Assembly: GCA_020627945.1 (NCBI GenBank) | Contig: JAHDFW010000001.1 | Coordinates: forward strand, 5,603 to 69,602 | Direction: 5' to 3' | Source of the DNA: Cytophagales bacterium | GTDB taxonomy: Bacteria; Bacteroidota; Bacteroidia; Cytophagales; JAHDFW01 | DNA length: 64,000 nucleotides | Part shown: piece by piece, positions 13,447 through 32,235 of the stretch | Numbering within the stretch: position 1 is the stretch's first letter | Layout: each line of letters opens with the position of its first letter | Position numbers and translations under genes: made by a program | Notes under the pieces: generated by a model | What the model saw: only the letters and a program-made list of their open reading frames with translations | Database searches by the model: none | Told to the model about the DNA's origin: nothing

Positions 13447-13596
13447 TTTCTACCGTTAGAACAAAGTAAAGTTTATGATTGTATAGAAACCAAGGGAAAT
13501 ACAATCGATTAATTGACATCATAATTGGACAATTATATATTATTAAACTTTATATTAATTATATTTAATGCTTTCAAAACTTCCATCGGTCATTTT

Positions 13597-14130: not shown

Positions 14131-16478
14131 AGGAGGAATATAGAAAAGCATATCAGCGAGAAAAAAGATATAGAGAAGCTATAGAGCAAATCTTCCATAA
14201 AAAGATTGAAGAACTAACCGCTCAAAACACACAACTTCTTGGAGAAAACGAGCATTATAAGCAGCTTGAATCATTCGAAGCAAACTTTCCCGAAAATTTC
14301 GATTTGACATCGGAAAACCCTTATCCCATAATAAAACTTGACCTCAATCTTAATGTTGTTTATGCTAACACCTCTGGATATCAAATAATAATTGAATATA
14401 ACGGCAACCCGAATACATTCAATATTTTAACCCCAGACCAATTCAACTTCCTACGAAAAGAGCTTCATTTCAGTAAAAAATTACATCTAAAGAAAAGAAT
14501 CTTCGAGCTAAACATTAATCTTTCCAAGAATTCGGAAATTCTAATATTTGCTACGGATATTACCGAAAAAGCAGAAGTAGAATATAAACTAGCTGAGACT
14601 GAAAACACGTATAAAACACTTTTTAAAACCGCTAATGTAATTGTTTACAAAGTTAACTTAGAAGGGAATTTCACACTCATAAACAACAAAACTATTGAAA
14701 TCGTCGAGTATTCGGAATTGGAGTTGTTAAATATGAATTTCATCAATCTTGTTCATCCGGATTCCAGGCGAACTGTTCTTTTACATTATCTCAAGCTAAT
14801 TAGAAGTCGCACCAAATCAAGTTATTTGGAATTCAGATTACTTACCAAATCTGGAAAATCTATTTGGGTGGGGCAAAGTGTTACTCTAAAATTCATGGGC
14901 AATGAATTCACTGAAGCTATTGCCGTTGCTAGAGATATCACTGAGGTAAAAATCAATGAAATAGCATTAAAAAACAGTGAGGAAAAATATCGTAAGACAA
15001 TAGAAAATTTGCATTTCGGACTAATGGAAGTAGATACCAATGAGCATATCCAAAAAGTAAATAATGCTATGATCGATCTTACGGGGTATACCGAAGAAGA
15101 ACTTATAGGCAAGCAACCCTTCCAGTTCCTTCTAACTGATGAATCCAAAAGAGTAATGGAAGAACAAATTACTAACCGCTCTAAAGGAAATTCGAATGCT
15201 TACGAGGTTCAACTAAAACGTAAAGATGGAGCATTACGTTGGGCTATGATTTCGGGAACACCAATATATGATGAAAATAATATAATGATTGGTTCACTAG
15301 GTATCCATGTGGATATTACCGATCAAAAAGAGACGGTAAGCAATTTAAGAATCGCTGAAAACAAAGCTTTGGAATCTTTAAAATCGAAAGAAATTTTCCT
15401 TGCAAAAATGAGTCATGAACTGCGCACACCTTTGAACGCAATTCTTGGATTCTCCGAAATAATCCAAAACAATTATCCTGATAATGTAGAACTCAAAAAT
15501 CAAATTAACCCAGTTTATACTTCTGCTCAGCATTTGCTGAATTTAGTAAACGATTTATTAGACTTCACTAAGTTGAATCAAAGTAAGATCAAACTGGAAA
15601 AGATAGGATTTGATATTTGCAAACTCTCAAAAGAGGTAGAAAATCTATTCAAACAGCCAGCAAACCAGAAAAACATTCAGTTGATTTTCAATTTACCTGA
15701 GAATTCACCTTTCGTTTCTGGAGACCCTACAAGAATAAGACAGATCATCACCAACCTTGTTAGCAACTCTATTAAATTCACACAAGATGGCTATGTGAAA
15801 TTCCACTTAAGCTACGAATCCAAAGGCGATCAAGTTGTGACAAAAATTATGGTTGAAGACTCAGGAATTGGAATAAAACCAGAAAACTTAGAGCGAATTT
15901 TCAAAGAGTTTGAACAAGAAGACATTGGAACAACAAGAAATTTTGGTGGTACTGGGTTGGGTTTACCTATCGTAAAAGGTTTGGTAGATGCTATGAATGG
16001 TTCAATAAAAATACGAAGTGAGTTTGGCTCAGGAACTACGGTTGAGCTTATCATTCCACTACATAAAGCAACAACTCCAAGCGAGAAAACTGTAAGTGAA
16101 GAAATAAACGACCCAAATCAACTACATGGGCATAAAGTTTTAGTTGTAGACGATCACCCATTTAACTTAATGTTGGCGCAGAATATGTTAGAAGCGTTTA
16201 ACGCAGTGCCGACAGTCGTAAGCAGTGGAATTGAAGCAATAGATCGCATTGAAGAAAATTTCGACGTAGTTTTAATGGATATTGAAATGCCTGAAATGAA
16301 CGGGATTGAAACTACAGAAATTATTAAAAGAACTACTCCTAACCTTCCTGTAATTGCAGTTACCGCGGACCTAGTCGGAGGGCATGCTGCTAAAAAAGAT
16401 TTGTTTTCAGGGTTTCTAGCTAAACCTTATAGTGCTGTTGAATTGTACAACATAATAGCCAAAGTTACCCTACAGTAA
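14118..16478 (+). CDS. Hybrid sensor histidine kinase (coiled-coil, PAS repeats, HisKA, HATPase_c, C-terminal REC)
   Basis: H-box MSHELRTPLNAILGFSE. N-box ITNLVSNSIKFT. G-boxes DSGIGI and GGTGLGLPIVK. The receiver is KVLVVDDHPFN...VLMDIEMPEMNG...IAVTAD...LAKP. PAS-like segments are seen (ARDITE, GIHVDITDQK). Confidence 0.9.
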   Translation: MSSIEEEYRKAYQREKRYREAIEQIFHKKIEELTAQNTQLLGENEHYKQLESFEANFPENFDLTSENPYPIIKLDLNLNVVYANTSGYQIIIEYNGNPNTFNILTPDQFNFLRKELHFSKKLHLKKRIFELNINLSKNSEILIFATDITEKAEVEYKLAETENTYKTLFKTANVIVYKVNLEGNFTLINNKTIEIVEYSELELLNMNFINLVHPDSRRTVLLHYLKLIRSRTKSSYLEFRLLTKSGKSIWVGQSVTLKFMGNEFTEAIAVARDITEVKINEIALKNSEEKYRKTIENLHFGLMEVDTNEHIQKVNNAMIDLTGYTEEELIGKQPFQFLLTDESKRVMEEQITNRSKGNSNAYEVQLKRKDGALRWAMISGTPIYDENNIMIGSLGIHVDITDQKETVSNLRIAENKALESLKSKEIFLAKMSHELRTPLNAILGFSEIIQNNYPDNVELKNQINPVYTSAQHLLNLVNDLLDFTKLNQSKIKLEKIGFDICKLSKEVENLFKQPANQKNIQLIFNLPENSPFVSGDPTRIRQIITNLVSNSIKFTQDGYVKFHLSYESKGDQVVTKIMVEDSGIGIKPENLERIFKEFEQEDIGTTRNFGGTGLGLPIVKGLVDAMNGSIKIRSEFGSGTTVELIIPLHKATTPSEKTVSEEINDPNQLHGHKVLVVDDHPFNLMLAQNMLEAFNAVPTVVSSGIEAIDRIEENFDVVLMDIEMPEMNGIETTEIIKRTTPNLPVIAVTADLVGGHAAKKDLFSGFLAKPYSAVELYNIIAKVTLQ

Positions 16479-16623
16479 CCCCTTCTACAAGTTTCTAATT
16501 TGGACAAATTCTCTAAATGAGAATTAAAGATCCGACAAAAACAGTCCTAGTTATGTCTATTAACACATTTAGACATCTGACATGAAATTTGCACTATTAT
16601 TACTTAAAAATAGGATTAAAAAT

Positions 16624-17067
16624 ATGAGAACAGTAATAATAGATGATGACCCGTTTTTCGCAGAGGTATTGGCACAAAAGCTCCGTTCTTTTGGACTTAG
16701 CACTGTTAAAATAGTTTCTAATTTGGACGAGTTAAAAAGAGCAAAAACTAAACCTGAAGTTTTCTTTATTGACTATCATTTAAAACGAGGGAACTGTAAT
16801 AAGTTGATAAGGTATATTGAAAAACAACACTATTCATCCAGTATTATTGTAATGAGTGCCAATAGCAATGCACCTAAGCTACTTGAATCTAAGAATCGTT
16901 ATTATTTCTTTCCTAAATCGAAATTCAGATACCTCAAGTACCAGATATATGATATCAAAGAAAATATTCTGAGAAGACAAAAGGCACAAAACTACATAAA
17001 GGCCATCTATTTTTCCATCATAATAGCAGTAATCTACTTTTGCTTATATTGGTTAATAAATAGTTAA
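16624..17067 (+). CDS. Single-domain response-regulator receiver with C-terminal transmembrane anchor (REC-TM)
   Basis: The receiver residues are present: MRTVIIDDD, FFIDYHL (phospho-Asp), IVMSA and FFPKS. A basic or coiled segment and a terminal TM helix (AIYFSIIIAVIYFCLYWLI) follow. An alternative ATG lies at 16582. There is no output domain. Confidence 0.7.
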   Translation: MRTVIIDDDPFFAEVLAQKLRSFGLSTVKIVSNLDELKRAKTKPEVFFIDYHLKRGNCNKLIRYIEKQHYSSSIIVMSANSNAPKLLESKNRYYFFPKSKFRYLKYQIYDIKENILRRQKAQNYIKAIYFSIIIAVIYFCLYWLINS

Positions 17068-17163: not shown

Positions 17164-18366
17164 CTATTCTTCATAAAACATTTGAGAATGCTTTTGATGT
17201 GCTAACCCTAAGCTAATCAGCTTGCTATAACTAACCTCCGAAAGCTTACTCCAAACCGAAGTTTTTCTATACTGATAATCAAACATATAGATTAAACTTG
17301 CATATTTCTGGGCAATAACTTCCCAGGTATAACGTCTCATCGCAATTAATTTAAGCTGCTCTCCAAGGACTAACCGTTGCTTATAGGTGTATTGTTGAAG
17401 AAGGGATTTTAGATGAACGGCGTCCTTGAAGAAAACAGCTATATTTTCAGTGGTGGCTCTATTATATGAAACATCGTATGCAAAAATGGGCAACCCTAAA
17501 TACATGGCTTCTACTAGAGAAGGATTTGTACCTCCTGCACTATGTCCATGTATATATAATTGGCAATTACCTCTTAGTAAATCTAATTCACGCTGGTCAT
17601 AAATTGGATCTAATAAAACAATATTTTGGGAGTTGGAATAATCTAAGAAAAGTGCTTCTCCATACGGGCTTGCCGACCAATTACCGACAACTACAATCGG
17701 CATTTCAGAATGTTTATGAAATGCTTCTAATATCACGTGCACGTTATTTTCTGGCTCAATTCGACAAACCTTAAACGCATAAGGTCGTTTTAAAAAATCA
17801 TACTTTTCAAGATCTTCATTCGTAGGCTGAGTTGACATGACATGATCTGCCCCATATTCGATTAGGTGACTTAGGGTCTTATAATTAATAGCCGTATATT
17901 TTTTTATTGCGATGTTATCCGTAATGTCAGCATCGGAAAACTTAACGGCAAGAAACTCCGAAATTTTAAGGAACTTTTGAATAGGCTTGCTCCATTTCTG
18001 ACGTCTCCATTCCAAACCATCTATATTAATAATTATCTTCTTGGAAGTAAACAGCTTCACCAAGGGCAAGATAATACCCCCAGACACTCCTAATACCAGC
18101 AAAGTGTCCGCATAAAACAAAGCATGCAGGATAGAAAGAATATCATAGAGAATACTTGAAGCACCATTTGCATTTAATGGAAGATGAAACAAGCGTGCAC
18201 CCTTCCAGTACTTTTTTCTTTCTGCTTTAGGATAATATTTATTGCTGCAATAGACGTAAAGGTCGAATTCCAGACTTAACTGATTTACTAAGTGATGAAC
18301 CAATGTCTCAAAACCTCCATATCTTGCAGGTACACCTGCAGTTCCAATAATTGCTACTTTTCTCAT
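17164..18366 (-). CDS. Glycosyltransferase with DUF1972 N-terminal domain (GT4-like)
   Basis: The N-terminus MRKVAIIGTAGVPARYGGFETLVHHL is the DUF1972 signature. The C-terminal GT1/GT4 region contains GGTNPSLVEAMYLGLPIFAYD. Confidence 0.8.
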   Translation of the reverse strand: MRKVAIIGTAGVPARYGGFETLVHHLVNQLSLEFDLYVYCSNKYYPKAERKKYWKGARLFHLPLNANGASSILYDILSILHALFYADTLLVLGVSGGIILPLVKLFTSKKIIINIDGLEWRRQKWSKPIQKFLKISEFLAVKFSDADITDNIAIKKYTAINYKTLSHLIEYGADHVMSTQPTNEDLEKYDFLKRPYAFKVCRIEPENNVHVILEAFHKHSEMPIVVVGNWSASPYGEALFLDYSNSQNIVLLDPIYDQRELDLLRGNCQLYIHGHSAGGTNPSLVEAMYLGLPIFAYDVSYNRATTENIAVFFKDAVHLKSLLQQYTYKQRLVLGEQLKLIAMRRYTWEVIAQKYASLIYMFDYQYRKTSVWSKLSEVSYSKLISLGLAHQKHSQMFYEE

Positions 18367-18478
18367 ATCCCTTTATTATTACTTTAGGCCAATTTTATTC
18401 CAACAAGCATAACTACTGATTATCTGCACTTTACAAAAACAAATCTCTAAATCCATTCTCAAATCGAGACTCATTTAC

Positions 18479-19594
18479 TCAAATCTGCACTGAGCTTCGA
18501 TCAAATACAACACCTAAAATATTTTTACTAAAAGTGGAAAAGTCAAATTCTCCTGAACGCAACTTAGACATAGAAGAAAACCTTCTATACAAAGACTGAT
18601 TTACCATTAGGTTAAAAACTACCTTTTCCAGCTTACTTGAATTTCGACTATCCACACACTGACCAAACAAATTGTCTCCAACGAGTTCTTTAACACCTCC
18701 TACTGGCGGTACAACTACCGGAATTCCATAGCTCATAGCTTCCAAAACTGTCATTCCAAATGTCTCTACCCATTCATCTGGTTTTGATAAATTAAGCACC
18801 ACACTTGCCCGTTTATAAAACCGATGAACATCATTTTGAGCAGGGTAAATAAAAAGGTTCTCGGGAAGATCCTTCCCTGCAAAAAAGAAATCTAACTCAT
18901 TTCGGGATGCATTTAACACCAATTCAAATTTCATATATGGAAACGTAAAGGCTAGATTTACAAACTCATTGACCCCCTTATATCCTTTTAGCGAACACAA
19001 CATTAGCACATAAAAATCTCCTCTTCTAGTAGCTAAATGATTTCTACTTTTATTAAAAAACTCTGGGGAAAGACAGTTATATACTACTTTATTATTCACC
19101 TTTTTTAGCGCTTCATGTTGCAACGCATATTTGGAAACGTAAACTGCCGTGCTCGCACAATAGTTAGCCACTAACTTTAAAAACCATTTAAACATTAGAG
19201 GTCGTATTGATGTTTCATGAATATGATAAACCACCTTCTTATTCATAAACTTTCCAGCGAGCGCCGCTCCAAAAGGAAGCAGCGTATTCACATAAATAAT
19301 TACATCTTCATTTCGATATGAAAAGAGCTTAAAAAACAATTGAAACTGACTAATCAACAAGTTGATGAAAGTAACGAGCTTAAAACGCTCACTTCTTCGA
19401 TAATCAAAATAATTAAGATCAGCTTCTTTTATGTCAGATAAGAAACCTCCATGCCGACTCTTTGAGGTAAACACCTGGACTGGCACTTGCTTATCCAACA
19501 AACTTTTTATCACGTAGGAACCTACTTTAGGGCTACCACTATAATCATCTTTTAAATGTGCAAATAGAACTTTAGGAGTCGATATATTCATCAT
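18479..19594 (-). CDS. Glycosyltransferase family 4
   Basis: The EX7E-type motif region is ETFGMTVLEAMSYGIPVVVPPVGGVKELV. The fold length is GT-B-like. Confidence 0.8.
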   Translation of the reverse strand: MMNISTPKVLFAHLKDDYSGSPKVGSYVIKSLLDKQVPVQVFTSKSRHGGFLSDIKEADLNYFDYRRSERFKLVTFINLLISQFQLFFKLFSYRNEDVIIYVNTLLPFGAALAGKFMNKKVVYHIHETSIRPLMFKWFLKLVANYCASTAVYVSKYALQHEALKKVNNKVVYNCLSPEFFNKSRNHLATRRGDFYVLMLCSLKGYKGVNEFVNLAFTFPYMKFELVLNASRNELDFFFAGKDLPENLFIYPAQNDVHRFYKRASVVLNLSKPDEWVETFGMTVLEAMSYGIPVVVPPVGGVKELVGDNLFGQCVDSRNSSKLEKVVFNLMVNQSLYRRFSSMSKLRSGEFDFSTFSKNILGVVFDRSSVQI

Positions 19595-19615
19595 TTTTTG
19601 ATTTATGCTAAATGG

Positions 19616-20884
19616 TTAAACAATGGGTTGTGGAACTTCAGAACGGAAAAGAGATTGATAAACAGAAGACAACAATTCTCCTCTCACATTCCATTCAAAA
19701 TTTTGAGTAAACAAAGCTTTGGAAGATTTTGAGTAACGTTCAAGCTCCCATCGATTTCTGTATAAACAATTTAAAGAAGTCGAAAACTGATTTATACACC
19801 TATGATATTGACTATAGGGAACTTTTACTCCAACATCGCTGGTAACAAACTCTCCAGGGCCGTAATTGTCAAAACAAAGAATTGGAAGTCCTGCAGACAT
19901 GGCTTCGGCTACGACCATTCCTGCTCCTTCATGGGACGGAAATAAAAAAACATGTGAATTACTGTAAATTTGCTTAAGTTCTTCCCTTTTAACCCATGAT
20001 ATAATTGTAATCGCGTCCTCCAGCTGCATTTCCGAGATAAGTTTACGCAACTTAGGCTCTTCAGGACCTTTACCCACCAACGTTAGATGTGGCCGTTTAC
20101 TACTTCGGCCGTTTACCACACCGTTATAAAACTTAGCAAATGCCTTAATAGTAATATCAAAGCCCTTAAGCGGCACAAATCGCCCTACAGAAAGTACATG
20201 AAACTCAGCTTTCGTAGAAGTGGAAGTGGATGCTGCCATACTATCAGAAGCTACAGATGGCATCCGAATTTCCTTCTCGCCTATGTTATAGATCTTATCC
20301 TTTACAGAGGAATTCATCGTAAGAATGACATCTGAGTTCAATTTGGTAAGCCAAAGTAGCGGACTAATCTTCCATGCATAACACTTAACCATCCACTTAA
20401 GACGATCTTGTATGTACGTTTTCATTCCATAAATCGGAAGAACAAATGCTTTAGGAATTTTCGGATGATGACCTATCGGTCCCCAAACTTTAGGTTTTCG
20501 TAGCAACCAAAGAAATGAAGGAGTCCAATCATTATGAAAGTTTAGATTATGAACAATATCAAACCTAAGATTCGATGATTTAACTTTCGCAATTAAGAAA
20601 AGTTGCCAAAAAAAGTAATAAACTAATGCACCTCTCTCTCCTTTTTTCCAAAACCTCATCCAGTATGGCAAATCAAAATAAACAAAACTCATGGAAGCAT
20701 ATAGCGAACTAGGATGCTCCTTCATATATTTTTCAATATGCTCTCTATTATTTTTGCGGGTTAACAATATTACGTTTTGAAATCTAGCAATCTGTAAAGC
20801 AAAATTCCAACCCATACCATCTTCTGATCCTTTGAATGGATTCATGGCATATGCCGTAGCTAAAACCGTTATTTTATGATTCAT
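19616..20884 (-). CDS. Glycosyltransferase family 4
   Basis: The sequence contains PSHEGAGMVVAEAMSAGLPILCFDNYGPGEFV. The length is GT-B-like. Confidence 0.8.
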   Translation of the reverse strand: MNHKITVLATAYAMNPFKGSEDGMGWNFALQIARFQNVILLTRKNNREHIEKYMKEHPSSLYASMSFVYFDLPYWMRFWKKGERGALVYYFFWQLFLIAKVKSSNLRFDIVHNLNFHNDWTPSFLWLLRKPKVWGPIGHHPKIPKAFVLPIYGMKTYIQDRLKWMVKCYAWKISPLLWLTKLNSDVILTMNSSVKDKIYNIGEKEIRMPSVASDSMAASTSTSTKAEFHVLSVGRFVPLKGFDITIKAFAKFYNGVVNGRSSKRPHLTLVGKGPEEPKLRKLISEMQLEDAITIISWVKREELKQIYSNSHVFLFPSHEGAGMVVAEAMSAGLPILCFDNYGPGEFVTSDVGVKVPYSQYHRCINQFSTSLNCLYRNRWELERYSKSSKALFTQNFEWNVRGELLSSVYQSLFRSEVPQPIV

Positions 20885-20908
20885 TAAATTCTTATTATTG
20901 GTTAATAC

Positions 20909-21625
20909 TTATGCCGCGTTCGACACACTGGCAATCTGTGCACGGTCTTTTATTACCTTGGCTGGCACACCTGCTATCACTGAATAAGCAGGCATAGACT
21001 GAGTCACCACGGCTCCTGCTGCAATCACACAGCCTTCACCTATAGTTACTCCGTCCAAAATGGTAACTTTTGATCCTACCCAACAGTTTCCGCCTATCTT
21101 AATTCCTTTTCTTATGGTCCCCTGATATCTTATTGGTGTCTTTAGGTCACTGAATTGATGATTTTCGGGGTGACAACTGAAATATTGCCCCACAATACAA
21201 TCATTGCCAATTTCTAATCCTCCTGCTCCTCCTAAATAAGCATACTCACCTATACCTACATTGTCCCCAATCTTTATAAATTCTCCAATACTGTTGAATG
21301 ATGTAGAAACGATAAGCCTACAAAAAGCTCCAACACCAACATTATCTCCGATTATAATACCTTTTTTACCGAGCGCACTGAGATGAGTAAACTCCCCTAT
21401 TTTAACCATGTTCCCCATGGTGATTTTTGACTTATGAAATAGCCTAACTCCCCTTTCTAAAAAAATCAGATTGAATTGCTTATTGTAAATCATCATTCTA
21501 ATTCCTCGCAGTAAGCATCGGCTCTGATGCACGGTCAAATTAAAAATCATTGTGATGTCCACGGATGGATCAAATTCAAATTGAGGGTTTCTCAAGCGTA
21601 TTATTCTTTGAATAATTTTCTTCAT
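20909..21625 (-). CDS. Hexapeptide-repeat (LbH) O-acetyltransferase
   Basis: It has repeated [LIV]G-x4 hexapeptides (IGDNVGVGAF, IGDNVGIGEYA, IGNDCIVGQ, IGGNCWVGSKVTILDGVTIGEGCVIAAGAVV). Confidence 0.8.
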   Translation of the reverse strand: MKKIIQRIIRLRNPQFEFDPSVDITMIFNLTVHQSRCLLRGIRMMIYNKQFNLIFLERGVRLFHKSKITMGNMVKIGEFTHLSALGKKGIIIGDNVGVGAFCRLIVSTSFNSIGEFIKIGDNVGIGEYAYLGGAGGLEIGNDCIVGQYFSCHPENHQFSDLKTPIRYQGTIRKGIKIGGNCWVGSKVTILDGVTIGEGCVIAAGAVVTQSMPAYSVIAGVPAKVIKDRAQIASVSNAA

Positions 21626-21670
21626 TGTAATCTTGGTAATAAGGTTGTAGTTAAATTCTTAATGCATTAC

Positions 21671-24409
21671 TTATGCTGCTCTGGAAAACTCTTTCATTAT
21701 AAACTGAAGAGTACGATTCAACTCGATATTTTCCAATGCCACAAAACGTGATTTGCCATATTTTTTGTCAAATTCTCGGAACAAGCTGATGTACCTTTTA
21801 TTTAACTTATCAATAGTGTTTGCGTTCAACTCCTTCTTTCTTCGTTGAATTACAGATGCCGACGCATGTAGAAAAACATTTAATCTCGGCTTAAGAAGAA
21901 TCCTAAATAGTCCTTTGGGCAAAATTTGAGGTAGTACTATATTGGACCTCTTGGAATCGTTTATAAAATCATAGTAATAGCGATCATAAATCACGATATA
22001 CCCAAACATCACGTACTTAAAAAACACGTAGAACTGACCGAAAAAATAGTCGATAAAATAATATGAGAAACGAAATAATGAACCTACAATACTTTGATTA
22101 GTCCCCATTCTTGGCAACCGTTTAGCGGCAAGACTTTCAGCTCTCTCCTTCCCTTTTGTATACGAACTAAGGATGGGTATTAAAGAAGGTCTGTGACGAA
22201 GTACAACTACCTTACGGCGGTACTTTTGAGCCACTTTTACTTTAAGTTTATCAATAACGGTAGATTTGCCCGCACCATCTACTCCACTTACGGTAATAAT
22301 AAATCCAAGGTTGTGTCGAAATTCAATAGCCTTATCTATGACATGCAGAACAAAGTTCACTCCTCGTCTAAACAAATTATTGCGTTTATAAGTATTTATC
22401 CTCTTGGCAACTTTTGCATGCTTAAATTTAGAATAACGACAAAGGCTAGATATACATTCACTCGGCAGCAAATATCTACCCTGAATGTATTTTGCGATTC
22501 TAACTTTTTCGAAAAAATTAAGGCGTCCAAAATAGACTTGGTATTTGTGAGGAACCGAAGCCCCGTTTAGAAGATAAAACAGGAATATATACTCAAAATC
22601 CATTTTCACATCAGGAACCATAATTCCTGCTTTATTTGGTCTTGCTGCAATCAACAGCCTATAAGAATCAAGATAAGTTGTTGTCTTTCGCTTAAAACGG
22701 TGAATTAAGTCTACACTTAAAAAACTTCCATCTCGAAAAAACAACTCCACTTTGGTCATATAAGATAAGGCCTGAACAAAATGCTTTTCAACCGTCGATT
22801 TACTAGTGAGGTAAGCCACCATGGACTGTAAATCCTCCTTACAAACCAACACATCCAAATCAGATGACTCTTTAATGGCCTTAAGTTCGTACTCTGTAAA
22901 CTTAAGTACTGCATAACGTTTATTCTTAATCCGTTCTATAAACGATGAAATTGCTTCCTGACGATTGGATTTATCGGCTTTTATAGATAAAACATCAAGC
23001 AACGCTTCTTCCCAAACCTCGAAAAGCCAGTCTACTTGTGTATGCAGTTTTTCTTGTCTTAAATAAACATTGAGGTAATGACTTATGTTAATAGCTAGGT
23101 AAAGTGATAAATGTAATTGAACATCAATCCCATAAGAGACTATAACTTGGTGTACTTCAGGTAGTGACAATGCACGATTAAGATCATTCTTAATCTTTTT
23201 ATAAGAATCACGTTTAACCAAAATACCAGTCTGAAATACAAAATGAAAAAGATCATACAGCAAAGGCTTCGCTGGATCACCATTTTCCCAATCAACAACT
23301 GCCAATGCTTCTTTATCTATAAAACAATTCCAAGGAGTAAAGTCACCATGAGCAAAAGCCAAAGGAATACTTGCGGTTGTATCAATAGAATCTAAAACCT
23401 GATTTAGCAAAGCATCCAATCTCTTAAACTTTCCAATGACTTGATAATGCTTTCTTACGCTATTCTCAATCCCACACTTTACTAAAAATTTGGTCTCTTG
23501 AATATCTTCATATGATACTTCAATTTCATATAAATTGCGTAACGCTTTAATGTGATATTGACCGAACTCCATACTTCGCTTGGACTTTGGAGATCGTACA
23601 TTTGAGCTACACAATACACTTCTATGGTCCCAAGTAATATTCTTAGGAAGAATCAAATCTTTCAGGTCTTCCTGATTCAGCTCATCTAACATTTTTGCCT
23701 CTTGCTCCACTAACTCAAAAGATTTACCACGAAGTGGAATTTTAAGATAACTCATGGTATTTCGACCATCGTTGAGTTCCACTATTGCCTTACGATCTGG
23801 ATTAGGAGTCCCTAAAAACAAAGAATAAGAACTTGCGTGTAAAGACTTTATAAGCTTATCTAAAGACAGGTTCCCTTTATGATAAATAGTAAAAGTGCCA
23901 TCAGCTAAAAATGTTCTTAAGGGAGTTCTAAAGATATTCCTGAATACAAACTCTTTAATTTTGTCCTTCTTGGTTAACGAACTATAAAAATTCAAAAACG
24001 TAGCTCTTTTTAATGAGACTGGATATACCCATCTTAACGATCCGTCAGGATTGGTCAAATAACGAAAACTAGTAGATTGATAATTCTTCAGCCCCTTTCC
24101 TTTATTAGTTAGATCGATGATGTAATCTACTGAATCCTGTAAAGTTGAAGGTTCTCCACATTCAACTATTAAAGTAATTAACTCACCTTCATTGGCTACT
24201 TGAATTTCATTAACACAAGACAACCAAATCAAACGTATCTTTTCTCTACTAACGTTTTCATTTGAAGTCGAAAAAAACAGTTCCGATAAAAGTTGAAGAT
24301 CATTTTTTGGAATCATATTATTTAGCTTTGATATAAGTTTTATTCTACTCATACAAGAACCAAGAACATACCACATTGACAATTCGACTCTAAATGCACG
24401 TATAGACAC
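21671..24409 (-). CDS. Tri-domain protein: APH/choline-kinase-like phosphotransferase, NTP_transf_5-like nucleotidyltransferase and dTMP-kinase-like P-loop domain
   Basis: FAHGDFTPWNCFIDKEALAVVDWENGD (H354-D356 and DWE) is the kinase catalytic signature. SSDLDVLVCKEDL...LSVDLIHRF (D517-x-D519) is the nucleotidyltransferase-like signature. ITVSGVDGAGKST (around residues 706-716) plus DRYYYD is thymidylate-kinase-like. The start is uncertain: GTG at 24409, or ATG at 24376, 24352 or 24316. Confidence 0.7.
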   Translation of the reverse strand: MSIRAFRVELSMWYVLGSCMSRIKLISKLNNMIPKNDLQLLSELFFSTSNENVSREKIRLIWLSCVNEIQVANEGELITLIVECGEPSTLQDSVDYIIDLTNKGKGLKNYQSTSFRYLTNPDGSLRWVYPVSLKRATFLNFYSSLTKKDKIKEFVFRNIFRTPLRTFLADGTFTIYHKGNLSLDKLIKSLHASSYSLFLGTPNPDRKAIVELNDGRNTMSYLKIPLRGKSFELVEQEAKMLDELNQEDLKDLILPKNITWDHRSVLCSSNVRSPKSKRSMEFGQYHIKALRNLYEIEVSYEDIQETKFLVKCGIENSVRKHYQVIGKFKRLDALLNQVLDSIDTTASIPLAFAHGDFTPWNCFIDKEALAVVDWENGDPAKPLLYDLFHFVFQTGILVKRDSYKKIKNDLNRALSLPEVHQVIVSYGIDVQLHLSLYLAINISHYLNVYLRQEKLHTQVDWLFEVWEEALLDVLSIKADKSNRQEAISSFIERIKNKRYAVLKFTEYELKAIKESSDLDVLVCKEDLQSMVAYLTSKSTVEKHFVQALSYMTKVELFFRDGSFLSVDLIHRFKRKTTTYLDSYRLLIAARPNKAGIMVPDVKMDFEYIFLFYLLNGASVPHKYQVYFGRLNFFEKVRIAKYIQGRYLLPSECISSLCRYSKFKHAKVAKRINTYKRNNLFRRGVNFVLHVIDKAIEFRHNLGFIITVSGVDGAGKSTVIDKLKVKVAQKYRRKVVVLRHRPSLIPILSSYTKGKERAESLAAKRLPRMGTNQSIVGSLFRFSYYFIDYFFGQFYVFFKYVMFGYIVIYDRYYYDFINDSKRSNIVLPQILPKGLFRILLKPRLNVFLHASASVIQRRKKELNANTIDKLNKRYISLFREFDKKYGKSRFVALENIELNRTLQFIMKEFSRAA

Positions 24410-24459
24410 ATTTAGATATTAGTATGCTTTAAAATTTTCTCTATAAGAAACTAGGATTC

Positions 24460-25749
24460 TCAATTAGACACTCGAGCAATTTCTGGAAATCTACCCGAAA
24501 TCGTTAATTGAAGTTTTTGAGAAGATGTGAATACAGGGCTATATTTTATAGTATTCATCCATATAAGAATTTGATAAAAAAGGATCCCAAAATTAGTTTC
24601 ACCAAAAATTCCAAATTCAGTAAATGAATTAATTAAAATGGGGATGTAAATTCCTATAAAAGTCATTCTAACTATGCGATCATCAGACTTTAGATGCGCT
24701 CTTAGGGTAAAAATCATTTGAAAAACAACTATTGCTAAACCGATAAACCCGAGATTCATAAGCACCTGAATAAATGTATTATGTGTCATATGCCCCTCAT
24801 AGGTATGAACACTTTTAAATGCTCCAGTCCAGGAAATTCTCATAAACCCAAATCCGTACCAAGGAGATTTCTCTAATCCTTCGGTTAATAATGCTTTCCA
24901 AAAAGGCAAACGCCCTGTCATACTCAGCACCTCATCCAAGTCTCCTTGCTTTATAAAAATGAAACGAATTATCACTGGAATTGCTAATCCCATTCCAGCA
25001 TAAACCAAAAATTTCAAACTGGACTTACCTAGTTTATTGACAAACAGAAAAACAACTAAAAGCAACCCAATCATCGATGACCTGGAACCAGTCATTATTA
25101 ACGCATATAATATTACAGCGGCAAACAACAAGGTTCTCCATTTATATCTGGATTCGTTCCAGTACACCAATGCACATCCAATCCCCACAACTGCCAACAT
25201 ACCTAGCTCATTTGGGTTCATTAAGATTCCTCCCAATCTCGCAACCTCACCACCGTGAGTTAGACGAAAAAAAGTATCAGGATCAATGTACATACCAATG
25301 ACGAAAATCAGTAACACCCAAAATATCGAATAAAACAAACAGTGACTTATGGAGAGAGGAGTTTCAGCGTGATAAAAATTAAACCTTACAATGGTTTTTA
25401 TAAGGAAATATGCAAACACTAAGCTTTCAAGATCCATAACCAACTGCAACGTGGAATATCCTACGTCGGTAGACCAAAGCAAAGAAACAACTCCCATAAA
25501 TAAATAGGCGCCGTATAAAATTGGTGATAGCGTATTTTGATAGGAGAAATTCTTAAGTAAACCTTTGTTCCCCAAACTTTGATATACTAAAATCAACCAA
25601 CCCAATGTCCCCATTCGAAGAAGAATTTTTAGTACCCGCGTAATCAGAATATTCTCTGAAATAGTGAAAAAACCCACTATTTGCAATAAAAGTATCAGAG
25701 TGAGAAGTCGACCAAATTTGGATCTATTTATTGATGCTTTGCTCTTCAT
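24460..25749 (-). CDS. O-antigen polymerase/ligase family membrane protein (Wzy-like)
   Basis: It has about 10-12 TM helices. A Wzy_C-like loop is present (IMTGSRSSMIGLLLVVF). A large periplasmic loop follows. Confidence 0.75.
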   Translation of the reverse strand: MKSKASINRSKFGRLLTLILLLQIVGFFTISENILITRVLKILLRMGTLGWLILVYQSLGNKGLLKNFSYQNTLSPILYGAYLFMGVVSLLWSTDVGYSTLQLVMDLESLVFAYFLIKTIVRFNFYHAETPLSISHCLFYSIFWVLLIFVIGMYIDPDTFFRLTHGGEVARLGGILMNPNELGMLAVVGIGCALVYWNESRYKWRTLLFAAVILYALIMTGSRSSMIGLLLVVFLFVNKLGKSSLKFLVYAGMGLAIPVIIRFIFIKQGDLDEVLSMTGRLPFWKALLTEGLEKSPWYGFGFMRISWTGAFKSVHTYEGHMTHNTFIQVLMNLGFIGLAIVVFQMIFTLRAHLKSDDRIVRMTFIGIYIPILINSFTEFGIFGETNFGILFYQILIWMNTIKYSPVFTSSQKLQLTISGRFPEIARVSN

Positions 25750-25757
25750 GGATAGTT

Positions 25758-26870
25758 CTATTTCTCATAAACTTGGATTAGAGCTTCTGATATTTTATTC
25801 CAGTCAAACTGCTCAAAAACCATTTCAATGGCATTGGAACCCAAGGTATGGATGGTCTGATTTTCATGTAGTTGTTCAATCTTCAACATGGATTGGCAAA
25901 TGGTCTCTTCATTGTTTTCGATTAGAGGAATTCCCGCCTCATAGTCTCCAATATAATCTGCCATATTACTTGCTTTGCTTACAACACATGGAATTCCCAA
26001 ACTAGCCGCCTCCAATACGGCCCCCGGTAATCCTTCATTTCTGGATGGGTGATAAAACGCATCCATTTCACACAATAGATTATGTTTGTCCAAACCGAAT
26101 TGAGCACCATGAAAATGCACAAAGTTCTCCACACCCAAATCTGTAGCAAGCTTCATTAATTCTGTTAAATCTTTTCCATCTCCAATGATCGAAAGTCGAC
26201 CCGTACCATGATGCTTTTTCTTATACCTAGAGAACCCCTTCATTAAGAGATCAAGACCTTTTGTTTCAATATCTATTCTCCCACAAAACCCCATTATAAG
26301 TGAGCCATTCGTATATAAGTGACGGGTCGTAAAGTTCGAAATTTGCTGTCCATTGGGAATTAATACACTGTCTGTATTATAATTCAAGATCTTAAACGAA
26401 TCTACTTCACTTTGACCTATACAATGAATCGCTTTTGCCCTGTTAATAATAGATGACTCAACCACAGAAAGGTACAATCTCTTCAACCATTTATTCTTTT
26501 GAAGCGCTTTTGAATTATAAGCGCCATGTGGTGTGAAAAGAAATTCAATGCCCGCTTTAGTTAGCAATTCTGCCGCCACAAAAAATTCAGGTATAAATCC
26601 TCCATGAAGATGAAAAACAGCTCTTTCTTTAATCATAAGGATTTGTTTTTTTAATTCCTTATCGATCGTCCATTTCAACTTTGAGGACTGAAACAAAGAA
26701 GTAGCATAGTTTCTCTCAGGATAATTGTGAATCGGGTTTGGTGTAATTCCCCAGACTTGCACATCATAACCTAAACTGAACTGATGAGTAGCTAAGTTGT
26801 GCACTACTTTGTTTACCCCATTCATACGAAAAGGGTTTGCCTTACCTAAGATTAGATGGATAATTTTCAT
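25758..26870 (-). CDS. Glycosyltransferase family 4
   Basis: The sequence contains PSRNEGLPGAVLEAASLGIPCVVSKASNMADYI. The start overlaps the upstream gene stop by 4 nt. Confidence 0.85.
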   Translation of the reverse strand: MKIIHLILGKANPFRMNGVNKVVHNLATHQFSLGYDVQVWGITPNPIHNYPERNYATSLFQSSKLKWTIDKELKKQILMIKERAVFHLHGGFIPEFFVAAELLTKAGIEFLFTPHGAYNSKALQKNKWLKRLYLSVVESSIINRAKAIHCIGQSEVDSFKILNYNTDSVLIPNGQQISNFTTRHLYTNGSLIMGFCGRIDIETKGLDLLMKGFSRYKKKHHGTGRLSIIGDGKDLTELMKLATDLGVENFVHFHGAQFGLDKHNLLCEMDAFYHPSRNEGLPGAVLEAASLGIPCVVSKASNMADYIGDYEAGIPLIENNEETICQSMLKIEQLHENQTIHTLGSNAIEMVFEQFDWNKISEALIQVYEK

Positions 26871-28126
26871 AGATTTTTAACTTTATGATTAATAGAAAAG
26901 AAGAAGTAGCTCTGGAATATCAGCTGATTGGCAATTAGGCCAAGTACAACTCCAGATATTCCAAATTGGATCAATATGGGCTTAGCAAATAGAAGGCTAA
27001 AAACTGCACCCAAAATGTAGGCTATGAAGAGTGGTCTTGTATGCTCTAGGGTTCTTAATAAAAACCTCAAATTAATTCCTACATAAATAAGTACGTATAA
27101 AATTGAGTAACCAACAAATTGATTTCCATAACTCATTAATTCTTTAGAAAAGAAAAATCCTAAAAGCCATTCTCCGTAAAAAGTAAAGAAACACCCTATC
27201 AGAGCAGTCGCAATCGTACCCACCACAACAATTCTTAAAATAAATTTCTTTAACGCTTTCCAACCTGAATCAAAAAGAATCTTGCTTGCGCGAATTGGCG
27301 TATAATTTTCCGCTGCCAAGAAAAGTACATTCAAGACCCCTATTAAATTTTGAATCATTCTAATGGCACCAACAGCGACTGAGCCAAGTACTCCTCCTGC
27401 CACAATTATGAAAAAATTACCTGAGCACCATTGCAAAATAGAAGTCCCCAACAACCATTTTGAATATAACCAATGACGATAAGTTGCTTCTAGAAAAGAA
27501 GGCATATCTACCTTTAATCCAAACCATAATTTCCAGCGATATAAAACCCCTATCCCCTGAAGCCCAACTAGCATTAGAATCACTTGAAAAAGTTCTATTT
27601 TAGAATTAAGAATACCAATTAAACCCAAAGCCAAGAGTTGTCCTCCATATACAATCAAATCTAATTTGGCTGCTTCGAATGAATTACCAGATGCATAACT
27701 CAACTTACGTTGAAACTGTACAGTAAGAAATGTAAAAACAGCTAATTGTAATACAATACCAACTTTAATATCTAGAGTGCCAGGTAAATATTGGTTGCCA
27801 TACACCCAAATAAAAAGCCAAAGCAAAACTGACGTAACGAATACAAATGAGATATGCATTAAGCTCAATTGTTTGATATAATCATGCTTCTGCTTCAATT
27901 CCAGCTTTGGCATAAAGGTATACATTGGTGCTACAATTAAGCTTTCATGCAAACTCCCGAAAAACAATACAATCAGCCAAAGCAATGTAAAATCGCCATA
28001 CAACTCTAATCCCAACTGTTTTACTAAAAAAACTCCTAAAACAAAACTAGTCCCACTTACCAAAGCTTGATCGCCAAGCGTAATCAATTGAGGATATCTT
28101 CTAATATATCTGACTAATTTATACAT
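26867..28126 (-). CDS. Polysaccharide flippase (Wzx-like, MOP superfamily)
   Basis: It is a 419-aa polytopic membrane protein with about 12 TM helices. It begins ...LITLGDQALVSGTSFVLGVFLVKQLG, which is typical of Wzx. It sits inside the polysaccharide operon. Confidence 0.75.
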   Translation of the reverse strand: MYKLVRYIRRYPQLITLGDQALVSGTSFVLGVFLVKQLGLELYGDFTLLWLIVLFFGSLHESLIVAPMYTFMPKLELKQKHDYIKQLSLMHISFVFVTSVLLWLFIWVYGNQYLPGTLDIKVGIVLQLAVFTFLTVQFQRKLSYASGNSFEAAKLDLIVYGGQLLALGLIGILNSKIELFQVILMLVGLQGIGVLYRWKLWFGLKVDMPSFLEATYRHWLYSKWLLGTSILQWCSGNFFIIVAGGVLGSVAVGAIRMIQNLIGVLNVLFLAAENYTPIRASKILFDSGWKALKKFILRIVVVGTIATALIGCFFTFYGEWLLGFFFSKELMSYGNQFVGYSILYVLIYVGINLRFLLRTLEHTRPLFIAYILGAVFSLLFAKPILIQFGISGVVLGLIANQLIFQSYFFFSINHKVKNL

Positions 28127-30398
28127 GATTGAACCTTACTAATTTGGTTAAGCCGTTTATAAGTTTTTTTAACCTGGAATTATTGATATTATATAACCCA
28201 CTTAGGTTAGTACTTTTACTTGTACCATTGAGAACGAGTTTGATATTCGTTATCTTAAACTCTTGAGCAATATAATCTGGATAGGATAAGTATTTGGAAG
28301 GTGTGAAATTCGATCGCACCAAATAAAAACTATGGTCACAGGACTTCATAACCTGCAATACTTCTGGGTTAGACAGCAACATTGGAAGATCAATAATTAC
28401 CAGATCAAAGTTTTGTTTTAGTTCATATAACAAGTGACTCAGTTTTTCCACAAACAAAGAATCTATTTCTGTTCTCCCAGTTAATTGTAATTCATACAGG
28501 CCTGTGCTTTCATTTTTACGTAGTTGTTTCTGCCAATCAAATGTTGAATAACGTATGTCAAAATTTTGGTCTTCTAAATTGCCTTTGATTAAAGGATCAA
28601 CACTCAGAAATAATACAGTCCATCCTGTCCGTAGAAACGATTGACAAAGACCATTTGAAAAATACGTTTTACCTTCTTTTTCCATTCCAGAGGTTATAGC
28701 GATGCTTTGATTTTTCTGAATTCCATTCAACTTACAGAGTGTATTAAACTGATCGAATTGTCTCTGCTTCACTTGGTTATTTTTAGCCCAAGGAAGAACT
28801 CCAAGTACATGTTGTTGCGTATATTTCTCGAGTTCATTACGAGTATCAACCTTGGCCATCAACATAGATTTCAAGAAGACTATACTTACCCCCAGCAGCA
28901 ATCCAATAAAACCGGCCACAATCAACAACAATGATTTTTTAGGAGAAGCTGGGGTAGATGGAATTGTGGCCTGTTGAATTATCCTGTGAAATGCAATATT
29001 AGATGCTTCGGAAATTGCCGCTTCAGTACGTTTCTCGGCCAGAAAATTGAACATCTTTTGGTTTAGCTGAAATTCCCTTTCCAAAATCACCATCTGCTTT
29101 TCTTTCGTAGGTAATCCCTCAAAGGTCTTTTGAGCAAGAACAATCGTCTCTTCAATTTCACCTCGTTTGATACGTAGACTATTTCTGGTATTATGAATAC
29201 TTTCACGTATGTAGTCGGTCAGATCTTTTATTTTTTCATCAATCAATTTAACTTGCTTCTCCTCCTTGGTATACTTCAAAAGCAAGTCTTTCTTTTCGGC
29301 TTGATACATTTTGATCTTCTTAATCAATTCGGTTGAAAGTAAATCATTGAATGCTTCAAAATTTGGAGCTAACTGAAGAAACTCTTTATCCTCATCATCA
29401 ACATACTTAACTAATGAATCTAAGGAGGCCAGATTCATATCTAAGTTGGCTAATTGAATTTTTAGTTGTGCAATCTTGCGGAGTTCTGTTTCAGTTTCTT
29501 GCCGGGTATTAATGATATTATTCTTAAGACGGTAATCCTCTATTTTCCCTTCAGATTCGCGAAGCTTCTTAGAAACTTGCTCCAGTTGCCCATCAATAAA
29601 GTCCACCGTACGACCAGCAGCATTGCTCCTTGTATTGATGTAATCCTCAATATAAATTTTGGTTAAAGTATTTAGTAAATCGGCAGTCTTTTCTGGCACT
29701 TCAGATTTATATGAAACACGAATTACAGGCACATCTTTTTCTACAGCAACTACATCCAATCGACTCGCAACACGCTCCTTAAGGTCTTGAGGATCATTAA
29801 AAATTGTAAGGTATTGATCCTCCAACTGAAAGTTTGGTACGGCGGCAATAATAGAATCAGCTTTAACGACACTAAACTTCCAATTATTAACCACATAATC
29901 TTCCCCAAAAACTCCACTAAAAGCCGCATTATGAAACGTGAAAGGAAATAAAATTGTATAATTCTCATCACTCAGCACATCTATTCGAATCTCCTTATTA
30001 ATCAAAGAACTTGGGATGTTTTCGCTCTTAAATTCAAACGGTTTATTATGATACAACTCTTGAGTTCGAATAACACCAACTCTATAATATGAAGTACCAA
30101 AATCTAATTCTTCTAAAGCTTTTCCAATTAGCAATGATGATTTTAGAAGTTCAACTTCGCCAGCAATCTTATTCACATTAGAAAAGAGATCAAAATCCTT
30201 ATACAAGGTAGCGCTAGATGGTCCCTGACCCAGGTCATCTAGCTTAATTTTAACTGTACTTTCGAATTGCAATGGAGTGTATCTTATTACTCGCAAAGCA
30301 ATTAGTACAGCTATTAAAACACTGGCTAATACTACCAACCACCCACCCCGACGAAATGGTTTAATAATACGCGATATATCCTGCTTTTCTTCTAACAT
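28119..30398 (-). CDS. Polysaccharide co-polymerase / chain-length determinant with degenerate BY-kinase-like C-terminal domain (Wzc/GumC-like)
   Basis: It has an N-terminal TM, then a Wzz-like coiled-coil periplasmic region, then a second TM (LLLIVAGFIGLLLGVSIVFL). The C-terminal P-loop is ITSGMEKEGKT and the Walker B-like motif is LVIIDLPML. There is no C-terminal Tyr cluster. Confidence 0.8.
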   Translation of the reverse strand: MLEEKQDISRIIKPFRRGGWLVVLASVLIAVLIALRVIRYTPLQFESTVKIKLDDLGQGPSSATLYKDFDLFSNVNKIAGEVELLKSSLLIGKALEELDFGTSYYRVGVIRTQELYHNKPFEFKSENIPSSLINKEIRIDVLSDENYTILFPFTFHNAAFSGVFGEDYVVNNWKFSVVKADSIIAAVPNFQLEDQYLTIFNDPQDLKERVASRLDVVAVEKDVPVIRVSYKSEVPEKTADLLNTLTKIYIEDYINTRSNAAGRTVDFIDGQLEQVSKKLRESEGKIEDYRLKNNIINTRQETETELRKIAQLKIQLANLDMNLASLDSLVKYVDDEDKEFLQLAPNFEAFNDLLSTELIKKIKMYQAEKKDLLLKYTKEEKQVKLIDEKIKDLTDYIRESIHNTRNSLRIKRGEIEETIVLAQKTFEGLPTKEKQMVILEREFQLNQKMFNFLAEKRTEAAISEASNIAFHRIIQQATIPSTPASPKKSLLLIVAGFIGLLLGVSIVFLKSMLMAKVDTRNELEKYTQQHVLGVLPWAKNNQVKQRQFDQFNTLCKLNGIQKNQSIAITSGMEKEGKTYFSNGLCQSFLRTGWTVLFLSVDPLIKGNLEDQNFDIRYSTFDWQKQLRKNESTGLYELQLTGRTEIDSLFVEKLSHLLYELKQNFDLVIIDLPMLLSNPEVLQVMKSCDHSFYLVRSNFTPSKYLSYPDYIAQEFKITNIKLVLNGTSKSTNLSGLYNINNSRLKKLINGLTKLVRFNHV

Positions 30399-30403
30399 TC
30401 GGT

Positions 30404-31147: not shown

Positions 31148-31150
31148 GAC

Positions 31151-31890: not shown

Positions 31891-32235
31891 CTATTTAAAT
31901 TTTAGCAATATATCATCAAAAACCGCAATATAAGATTGTTCAATATTTCTTAGCAGGTGATCCATTCCAGCGTCCGATTCATTTTTGCATAAAGCCTGAA
32001 CTTGTGTAAGACTCTTGATCACCTCTTCCATCTGCAATACTTCCGTGGACGGTTTCAACCTGTGTATAGCAGAATGGATCGTATTATAATCTCGTTGTTC
32101 AAATGCTGCTCGAATCTTGTCTATACTTTTGGAAGATTCGGTTACAAACATAAAGGCCATGCGTTTCACAAAGTCACTATTACCTCGCGACATTTCTTCA
32201 AGATTCTCTAAGCTATAAGTTTCTGAGTTATTCAT
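31891..32235 (-). CDS. Histidine phosphotransfer (Hpt) domain protein
   Basis: It is a 114-aa helical protein with the Hpt-like motif HSAIHRLKPSTEVLQMEEV (H-x-x-K). Its start overlaps the upstream REC stop by ATGA. Confidence 0.75.
   Translation of the reverse strand: MNNSETYSLENLEEMSRGNSDFVKRMAFMFVTESSKSIDKIRAAFEQRDYNTIHSAIHRLKPSTEVLQMEEVIKSLTQVQALCKNESDAGMDHLLRNIEQSYIAVFDDILLKFK

Follow-up and report, generated by a model that had tools for sequence, protein, structure and literature searches.

A fusion protein that combines a choline-kinase/APH-type kinase, a Pol-beta-fold nucleotidyltransferase (NTase) and a thymidylate-kinase-like P-loop kinase, here called the trio, is encoded in a 64,000-nucleotide stretch of a Cytophagales bacterium genome (GenBank assembly GCA_020627945.1, contig JAHDFW010000001.1, positions 5,603 to 69,602). 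This stretch is termed the window, and all coordinates are positions within it. The gene is located on the minus strand in an exopolysaccharide (EPS) operon. It was concluded that the trio very probably comprises three active enzymes that work jointly in this EPS pathway, with the glycosyltransferase GT4_b as their predicted partner. The three activities were found to be inherited as a unit, whether fused, split or permuted, and to travel with one family 4 glycosyltransferase (GT4), a Wzy_C protein and a Wzx-like protein. The superfamily of each domain is known; no description of the three-way combination, an N-terminal sub-domain and the fixed GT4/Wzy partnership was found in the literature searched.

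The trio gene and its domains

The first-pass annotation, made from the letters of the window, had assigned 912 residues to the protein. The open reading frame (ORF) was intact, running uninterrupted on the minus strand at 21671-24409 for 912 codons from a GTG, with the stop codon included in the span, but the protein itself is likely shorter. Since the N-termini of homologues lined up with the ATG at 24314-24316 (ORF residue 32, MIPKNDLQ...) and the database copy P0001, 100% identical to the window protein, has 881 aa, the true gene is probably 21671-24316 (-), encoding 881 aa from this ATG. Residues are given in P0001 numbering unless stated otherwise; adding 31 gives the ORF numbering. The motifs quoted in the first-pass annotation were all located where it had placed them, namely HGDFTPWN at ORF residues 354-361, DWE at 373-375, DLD at 517-519, VDLIH with D567, GVDGAGKST at 709-717 and DRY at 809-811.

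Conservation was assessed over 120 family members that were 29-39% identical to the window protein. The active-site residues of each module were invariant across this set, and all three domains are therefore predicted to be catalytically competent. The three enzyme-like modules noted earlier in one ORF were thus real, and no catalytic residue was missing from any of them among the homologues. A full-length AlphaFold2 (AF2) model built from the 120 sequences was compact and confident (predicted local distance difference test, pLDDT, 92.9; predicted template-modelling score, pTM, 0.79). Structure prediction and Foldseek returned kinase, NTase and thymidylate kinase (TMPK) folds instead of unrelated non-enzymatic ones. 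As no hydrophobic segment was found, the trio protein is, judged from its sequence, soluble and cytoplasmic.

The kinase domain occupies 22979-23836 (-). Its earlier assignment as an APH-type kinase was borne out by the Pfam APH profile (PF01636), which scored 26.0 bits against a cut-off of 23.2 (E 9e-6), the match being restricted to profile positions 146-209 of 239, the catalytic-loop region; the profile was matched in 19 of 42 homologues. Pfam Choline_kinase (PF01633) did not match the window protein, and weak matches were obtained for the relatives P0089 and P0091 (E 6.5e-4 and 1.6e-3, respectively). Foldseek matched the full-length model to APH(2''), LicA and choline/ethanolamine kinases at E 2e-6 to 5e-6 with target TM-scores of 0.48-0.64, and further to MTR kinase, macrolide phosphotransferase, maltokinase and glucosamine kinase, as well as LxmK and a RIO kinase. 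The domain carries an HxDxxxxN motif (HGDFTPWN, 23327-23350 (-)) and a choline-kinase-like D-W-E...F-D-L-F-H-F motif (DWE, 23285-23293 (-)). The residues K192, E206, D325, N330, D342 and E344 were invariant and H323 was kept in at least 90% of sequences. K192 and E206 (K223 and E237 in ORF numbering; 23741-23743 and 23699-23701 (-)) were assigned to the strand-3 lysine and the helix-C glutamate from the AF2 secondary structure.

A conserved N-terminal sub-domain precedes the kinase (residues 76-160, 23837-24091 (-); NPDGSLRW and FLxFYN), as delimited by the alignments and hhalign. It always accompanied the kinase module, in split and permuted relatives too. The hhalign match of the relative P0092 (probability 99.8) started at position 101 of the alignment A4 profile, equivalent to residue 107 and thus within this sub-domain. 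Residues 1-75 (24092-24316 (-)) form a variable segment, which was missing or different in many homologues (alignment A1) and was modelled with lower confidence (pLDDT 61-76).

The middle domain, followed by a helical bundle, lies at 22313-22978 (-). It had zero Pfam or NCBIfam matches in the window protein and likewise in the 42 homologues, and HMMER searches against Pfam, NCBIfam, PADLOC and PDB sequences gave nothing meaningful; structure prediction alone resolved it. The AF2 model from the 42-sequence alignment (pLDDT 96.4, pTM 0.91) was matched by Foldseek in the PDB to Pol-beta-fold nucleotidyltransferases only. The best match was JHP933 of Helicobacter pylori (4OK0; E 2e-5, query TM-score 0.50), followed by Trf4, TUT7, FAM46, TM1012, FKRP, poly(A) polymerases, ANT(6) and CCA-adding enzymes (probability 0.9-1.0). 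As modelled, the middle domain is a Pol-beta-fold NTase. The aspartates D486, D488 and D536 were invariant and located on adjacent model strands, 487-491 and 532-538 (D517xD519 and D567 in ORF numbering; 22853-22861 and 22709-22711 (-)). The hG[GS] motif expected before DxD was not present, and a conserved L-K was found instead (K472, invariant in alignment A3 and in at least 90% of A4). The same replacement presumably occurs in DUF1814/NTP_transf_5-type members.

The first-pass annotation had named this domain NTP_transf_5-like. The DxD core and the fold superfamily were right, but the NTP_transf_5 label was supported by no profile search, PF14907 giving no match in the window protein (E<=1) or in the 42 homologues (E<=0.1). 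A sister-family relative, P0091, passed Pfam NTP_transf_2 (23.4 bits, cut-off 21). An exhaustive profile search of 1.84 billion proteins with the middle domain yielded 503 representatives, 302 of them at E<1e-30; no bridge to a named NTase family appeared among the best 150 of these 503 matches, which all belonged to the trio family. JHP933, a DUF1814/AbiEii/MenT-type protein, resembles the trio NTase in having an NTase core followed by a helical bundle, L-K instead of G-S, and DxD with a third aspartate. However, JHP933-type enzymes showed no sequence-profile match with the trio NTase, which is fused to kinases and encoded in a polysaccharide operon. A LicD/FKRP-like phosphotransferase was disfavoured for the middle domain and kept as a possibility, FKRP being a mid-rank fold match only (query TM-score 0.37). 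The L-K and SDLD motifs are probably closer to those of DUF1814-type NTases than to LicD. Proteins of the DUF1814/AbiEii/MenT type are toxins that nucleotidylate tRNA (PMC7450476).

The C-terminal domain (21674-22312 (-)) had been described as a dTMP-kinase-like P-loop domain. Its fold and motifs were TMPK-like, but the scores stayed below the cut-offs, with 20.3 bits for Pfam Thymidylate_kin (PF02223; cut-off 27) and 19.1 bits for TIGR00041, far under its 83.25, and the acceptor segment was not that of a TMPK. Thymidylate_kin was matched in 42 of 42 family members with a best E of 3.3e-10. Foldseek aligned the full-length model with thymidylate kinases at target TM-scores of 0.71-0.78 and 19-21% identity, and the C-terminal-domain profile found Thermotoga maritima TMPK (PDB 3HJN) at E 4e-8, the P-loop, DRY and lid RKxEL being aligned. 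Invariant residues were G678, D680, G681, G683, K684, R707-H-R-P710, D778-R779 and R826-K827-x-E829. Besides RHRP, the motifs map to 22259-22285 (GVDGAGKST), 21977-21985 (DRY) and 21830-21841 (lid RKKE), all (-). The domain therefore shares the fold, the GxDGxGKS/T P-loop, DRY and the lid RK with Tmk, and is not the housekeeping tmk product; APS kinase, dephospho-CoA kinase, zeta toxin and CPT are relatives of Tmk.

Several identities were considered for this domain. That of a dTMP kinase found no support, with both scores below cut-off and the P-loop, DRY and lid alone aligning; such an activity is unlikely, the acceptor-binding segment not aligning with dTMP kinases. Matches to APS kinase were limited to the P-loop, and no PPK2 structures were present among the Foldseek matches, so neither identity was retained. 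For the whole protein, a defence-system reading was rejected after a PADLOC search that returned P-loop noise only. An antisense ORF of 125 aa at 22193-22570 (+) inside the trio gene was without support and is most likely spurious.

Distribution of the family and its conserved context

A word-indexed search recovered 92 clusters, every one annotated as 'hypothetical' or 'thymidylate kinase'. The full three-module architecture was present in 185 of 229 retrieved relatives; a further ~21 were natural two-domain proteins of NTase and P-loop kinase (~430 aa) with a Met start at the domain boundary. At least 495 genomes encoded a relative in a scan of one genome per GTDB species. The hosts were almost all Bacteroidota (Chitinophagales, Cytophagales, Sphingobacteriales, Flavobacteriales and Ancylomarina, with some Bacteroidales), together with Balneolales. 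A frameshifted, mis-assembled or decaying fusion, to which the occurrence of the two halves as separate genes in some genomes might point, was refuted by these full-length relatives and species genomes, the invariant residues and the compact AF2 model, which left practically no probability for an artefact and confirmed the fusion as genuine. Literature on the fusion, NTP_transf_5 and H-NOX/sigma54 EPS in Bacteroidota was searched, as was that on the EPS structures of Hymenobacter, Pedobacter and Chitinophaga and on plant-Bacteroidota fitness. Nothing was found on the trio protein, in line with the initial view that this was not a characterised three-way fusion.

The same activities also occurred in other arrangements. 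Contig L004 carried a split version, in which a 452-aa gene for the N-domain and kinase overlapped by 17 bases a downstream 435-aa gene for the NTase and TMPK-like domains; its upstream half was 30% identical to P0001 residues 82-435. Three weak matches of the first search represented a sister family. In P0090 and P0091 the modules were ordered NTase, TMPK-like domain, N-domain and kinase. At least 245 clusters of this permuted type were counted, all catalytic motifs being kept, with hosts among Tectomicrobia/Entotheonellia, Thermodesulfobacteriota, Binataceae, other 'Deltaproteobacteria' and the gammaproteobacterium Inmirania thermothiophila. In a metagenome-assembled genome of Bryobacteraceae (Acidobacteriota), P0092 was a fusion of the TMPK-like and kinase modules, and the NTase was encoded by its own gene upstream.

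Each of the related genomic loci (80 of 80), like three complete genomes, carried the trio in one and the same EPS operon. In the window this operon spans 17164-31639 (-), as delimited by Pfam/NCBIfam scans and locus comparison. In transcription order it encodes a response regulator, a Poly_export protein, a Wzz/GNVR (Wzc-like) protein, a 419-aa polytopic membrane protein (Wzx-like), GT4_a, a Wzy_C protein, the trio, a hexapeptide acetyltransferase, GT4_b, GT4_c and a DUF1972 glycosyltransferase. The acetyltransferase and GT4_c were not constant members of this order across loci. The trio is flanked, as the first-pass annotation had it, on the upstream side by a polymerase or ligase-like membrane protein of the Wzy_C family (24460-25749 (-)) and on the downstream side by a hexapeptide-repeat O-acetyltransferase (20909-21625 (-)). 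The co-inherited GT4_b, with an EX7E motif, is encoded at 19616-20884 (-); its best NCBIfam match was EpsH of Myxococcus, with a score far below the cut-off.

Of the 80 loci, 59 had the acetyltransferase and 20 had GT4_b immediately downstream of the trio, the acetyltransferase being missing in a subset of Flavobacteriales. GT4_b was located no more than two genes downstream in 75 of 80 loci, a count separate from the 75 loci that had more than 2.5 kb of downstream sequence. Wzy_C was the upstream neighbour in 53 of the 73 loci with room for it. Conversely, among metagenome loci anchored on Wzy_C and having room, the trio adjoined it in 46 of 57. The other 11 had nothing of the trio block after Wzy_C, and in L086 and L098, for which ORFs were listed, the operon ended there; these loci matched the split clusters seen in complete genomes.

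Four contexts of the sister family were examined. They were Wzx/Wzy-type clusters of otherwise different composition, with sugar-nucleotide genes of their own, WecG and Bac_transf. In all four, the sister trio adjoined a GT4 and a Wzy_C gene, often with Methyltransf_23 between. The GT4 of these clusters, which come from four other phyla, was the full-length best match of the window GT4_b (29-30% identity, E 1e-64 to 1e-66), and the Wzy_C and Wzx-like proteins were only distantly similar to those of the window. In the sister clusters L165-L168, the trio/GT4/Wzy_C block had Methyltransf_23 as a neighbour, and WecG and two epimerase/dehydratase genes were also part of the cluster. This pairing of a kinase with a methyltransferase recalls the chemistry of WbdD or of the methyl phosphoramidate (MeOPN) pathway.

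Other features of the operon and its surroundings

The Wzy_C protein was 40-56% identical across Bacteroidota orders (loci L001-L084), which is unusually conserved for a Wzy-type polymerase. From the sequences, this conservation would imply one ancient, conserved repeat unit in this EPS. The 419-aa membrane protein (26867-28126 (-)) has ~10-12 hydrophobic segments, belongs to no family in Pfam or NCBIfam and is conserved throughout the cluster, with weak similarity (23%) to the equivalent gene of the sister clusters; a very divergent flippase of the Wzx type is its probable identity. The Wzz/GNVR co-polymerase (28119-30398 (-)) has a C-terminal P-loop-like domain (SGMEKEGKT) and no C-terminal tyrosine cluster, and no Wzb-type phosphatase is encoded in the operon; the protein may be a non-phosphorylated Wzc variant. 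The Poly_export protein is short (247 aa), much smaller than classical Wza. The operon does not contain a priming phosphoglycosyl transferase of the Bac_transf or WecA type; in the related genome L001 a Glycos_transf_4 gene follows the DUF1972 glycosyltransferase.

Beside the operon, the gene of an H-NOX (HNOB) haem-nitric oxide (NO) sensor (13525-14130 (+)) overlaps that of a PAS hybrid histidine kinase (14118-16478 (+)), which is followed by a receiver protein (16582-17067 (+)). Upstream of the operon lie a second receiver protein (32232-32633 (-)) and a sigma54-type response regulator (32765-34123 (-)). Many related loci likewise have PAS kinase and sigma54 regulator genes on the flanks of this cluster, and H-NOX was also found in L040. 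The presence of H-NOX, PAS kinase and sigma54 regulator genes around the operon suggests that this EPS is under NO/redox control. The architecture is reminiscent of HnoX-HahK/syp in Vibrio and EpsI/Nla24 in Myxococcus. A search for the sigma54 promoter pattern TGGCAC-N5-TTGC gave no site upstream of the operon, and promoter and terminator scans were at background level.

The EPS of Myxococcus xanthus is made by a Wzx/Wzy pathway with the GT4 EpsH, the Wzy MXAN_7442 and the sigma54 activator EpsI/Nla24 (PMC7484181). The adjacency of GT4 and Wzy, the sigma54 response regulator and a histidine kinase are common to that locus and the trio operon, and no kinase/NTase/TMPK protein is present in its gene list (Table S1 of PMC7484181). 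Elsewhere in the window, 10928-13381 (+), 38535-39872 (+) and 34367-36529 (-) encode two proteins with type IX secretion C-terminal sorting domains and a vWA/YfbK protein, the latter adjoined by extracytoplasmic function (ECF) sigma factors. This set is consistent with a Bacteroidota genome and unrelated to the trio.

Proposed role of the trio and alternative explanations

The first-pass annotation had suggested that the modules act jointly on something destined for the polymer. This was strongly backed by the context, that is, the 80 of 80 loci, the split and permuted trios and the co-inheritance with GT4 and Wzy_C. Three conserved active sites co-inherited with a glycosyltransferase, a polymerase and a flippase imply an obligatory chemical step in polymer synthesis.

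We tentatively proposed that the trio is a self-contained activation line which synthesizes a donor in a specific order, a scheme that we hold to be somewhat short of an even chance. The choline-kinase/APH-type domain would first transfer a phosphate from ATP to a hydroxyl, either of a free sugar or of a small head group. The Pol-beta NTase would then join a nucleoside monophosphate (NMP), resulting in a nucleoside diphosphate (NDP)-linked or NMP-linked intermediate. Finally, the TMPK-like P-loop kinase would add a phosphate either to the nucleotide ribose (3'-OH), as do APS kinase, dephospho-CoA kinase and Cj1415 of Campylobacter jejuni, or to a phosphomonoester. The resulting nucleotide-linked phospho-donor, or unusual NDP-sugar, would enter the pathway at the step of GT4_b, either as the unusual donor of GT4_b or in decorating the sugar that GT4_b installs, and the modified unit would be flipped by Wzx and polymerised by Wzy.

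This order has precedents. In PAPS and CoA synthesis, the action of a kinase or an NTase is followed by that of a P-loop 3'-kinase, and LicA and LicC represent a kinase followed by nucleotidyl activation. The immediate neighbours of the trio, the acetyltransferase here and Methyltransf_23 in the sister clusters, are tailoring enzymes, which also fits an activation line.

The LicA/LicC/LicD system shares with the proposed activation line the logic that a head group destined for a glycan is first phosphorylated by a kinase and then activated with a nucleotide. The structures of pneumococcal LicA (4R7B, 4R77) matched the trio kinase at target TM-scores of 0.61-0.64, and the HxDxxxxN and D-W-E...F-D-L-x-H-F motifs are present in both. 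However, LicA was only 11-14% identical to the trio kinase, LicC has the NTP_transferase fold and not the Pol-beta fold of the trio NTase, LicD is missing from the trio operon, and the TMPK-like kinase and the N-terminal sub-domain of the trio have no counterpart in the LicA system. Scans of all operon genes with Pfam and NCBIfam detected neither a LicC-type cytidylyltransferase nor a LicD-type phosphotransferase.

The closest precedent in logic was the MeOPN pathway of Campylobacter jejuni, in which Cj1415-Cj1418 make CDP-phosphoramidate 3'-phosphate for capsule decoration (PMC11800397). The order of the Cj1418 kinase, the Cj1416 cytidylyltransferase and the Cj1415 P-loop 3'-kinase (plus Cj1417) resembles that of the trio and leads to a PAPS-like donor. 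Both systems are encoded in a capsule or EPS locus, and methyltransferases stand alongside, as in the sister clusters. The analogy is one of logic only, as the MeOPN enzymes are separate proteins of different folds and the Cj1421/Cj1422 transferases have no counterpart in the trio operon.

Several points weigh against the activation line. No member of the trio family was found to be biochemically or genetically characterised in the literature searched. Pol-beta-type NTases normally modify hydroxyls of RNA, proteins and antibiotics, and none is known to make NDP-sugars or cytidine diphosphate (CDP)-alcohols. LicC and RmlA, which do make CDP- or NDP-linked donors, have a different fold. Accordingly, of the kinase-then-donor scheme put forward at first, the LicA/APH-type kinase and the NTase fold stood, but the NTase class was not a known donor-making one and no direct precedent was available. 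The nearest relatives of the kinase and NTase include aminoglycoside-modifying enzymes acting on sugar rings, which fits direct modification of a glycan equally well. GT4_b resembles an ordinary EX7E retaining GT4. The same scans of the operon showed no obvious phospho-head-group transferase of the LicD, Stealth or TagF type, and the Bacteroidota operon is without a gene supplying a special head group. In the TMPK-like domain, the dTMP-binding segment (strand 2 to DRY; profile positions ~43-100) aligned to no TMPK and was replaced by a family-specific insert, RHRP...LPRxG....

The main alternative, which we consider possible but rather doubtful, is direct tailoring of the glycan. While the repeat unit is linked to undecaprenyl diphosphate on the cytoplasmic side, the kinase domain or domains and the NTase would modify hydroxyls of this unit, most likely those of the sugar that GT4_b adds, and install a phosphate, diphosphate or nucleotidyl/phosphodiester group. 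Comparable direct modifiers are WaaP, WaaY and KdkA on the lipopolysaccharide core, WbdD on polymannan, and APH and ANT enzymes on aminoglycoside sugars. The best structural matches of the kinase were APH(2'') enzymes, kinases whose targets are the sugar hydroxyls of pseudo-oligosaccharides, and ANT(6) and FKRP were among those of the NTase, but structures of the WaaP/Kdo-kinase type were not among the top 50 Foldseek matches. A separate phospho-substituent transferase gene is absent from the operon. The proteins co-inherited with the trio, GT4_b, Wzy_C and the Wzx-like protein, all recognise repeat-unit structure; acetyl- and methyltransferases that tailor glycans are neighbours, and the grouping of GT4, kinase and Wzy_C recalls waaG, waaP and waaL. 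On the other hand, the trio protein has no membrane-association element, a nucleotidylated polysaccharide is without precedent, and three nucleotide-using active sites exceed the need of a single phosphate decoration.

It is improbable that the trio carries out a salvage-type synthesis of a sugar nucleotide for GT4_b, in which an anomeric sugar kinase and a sugar-1-phosphate nucleotidylyltransferase would act in turn and the nucleotide set free would be phosphorylated again by the TMPK-like domain. Anomeric sugar kinases with the APH fold include NahK, AmgK and maltokinase, and maltokinase and glucosamine kinase were among the structural matches. GT4_b, as a conventional EX7E GT4, needs an NDP-sugar, the Bacteroidota operon encodes no sugar-nucleotide synthesis genes, and the trio is tightly paired with GT4_b across phyla. 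However, the NTase fold differs from that of known sugar-1-phosphate nucleotidylyltransferases, glycosyltransferase reactions release NDP and not NMP, so that an NMP-kinase step is not obviously needed, and the sister clusters carry their own NTP_transferase and epimerases besides the trio.

A regulatory enzyme that switches EPS synthesis, its kinase and NTase modifying a protein of the machinery such as the Wzc-like co-polymerase, is very improbable: the co-polymerase has no C-terminal Tyr cluster, the operon is without a Wzb phosphatase gene and under heavy regulation, and some APH-fold and Pol-beta enzymes modify proteins (LxmK and a RIO kinase being among the Foldseek matches), but the top structural matches were nearly all small-molecule kinases, the trio is tied in split clusters to GT4_b and Wzy_C and not to the Wzc-like gene, and three catalytic domains are uneconomical for one switch.

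It is unlikely, though conceivable, that the trio makes or installs undescribed chemistry, either a PAPS/CoA-like 3'-phospho-NDP donor or a nucleotidylated or pyrophosphorylated sugar on the lipid-linked unit. If true, EPS with a phosphate- or nucleotide-derived signature residue would form a class of its own, widespread and spanning phyla. Identification of the step catalysed by the trio would correct a widespread mis-annotation, the name 'thymidylate kinase' being misleading, and give a Pol-beta NTase its first function in glycan synthesis. It would also show which signature residue marks a biofilm polysaccharide that is very common in the environment.

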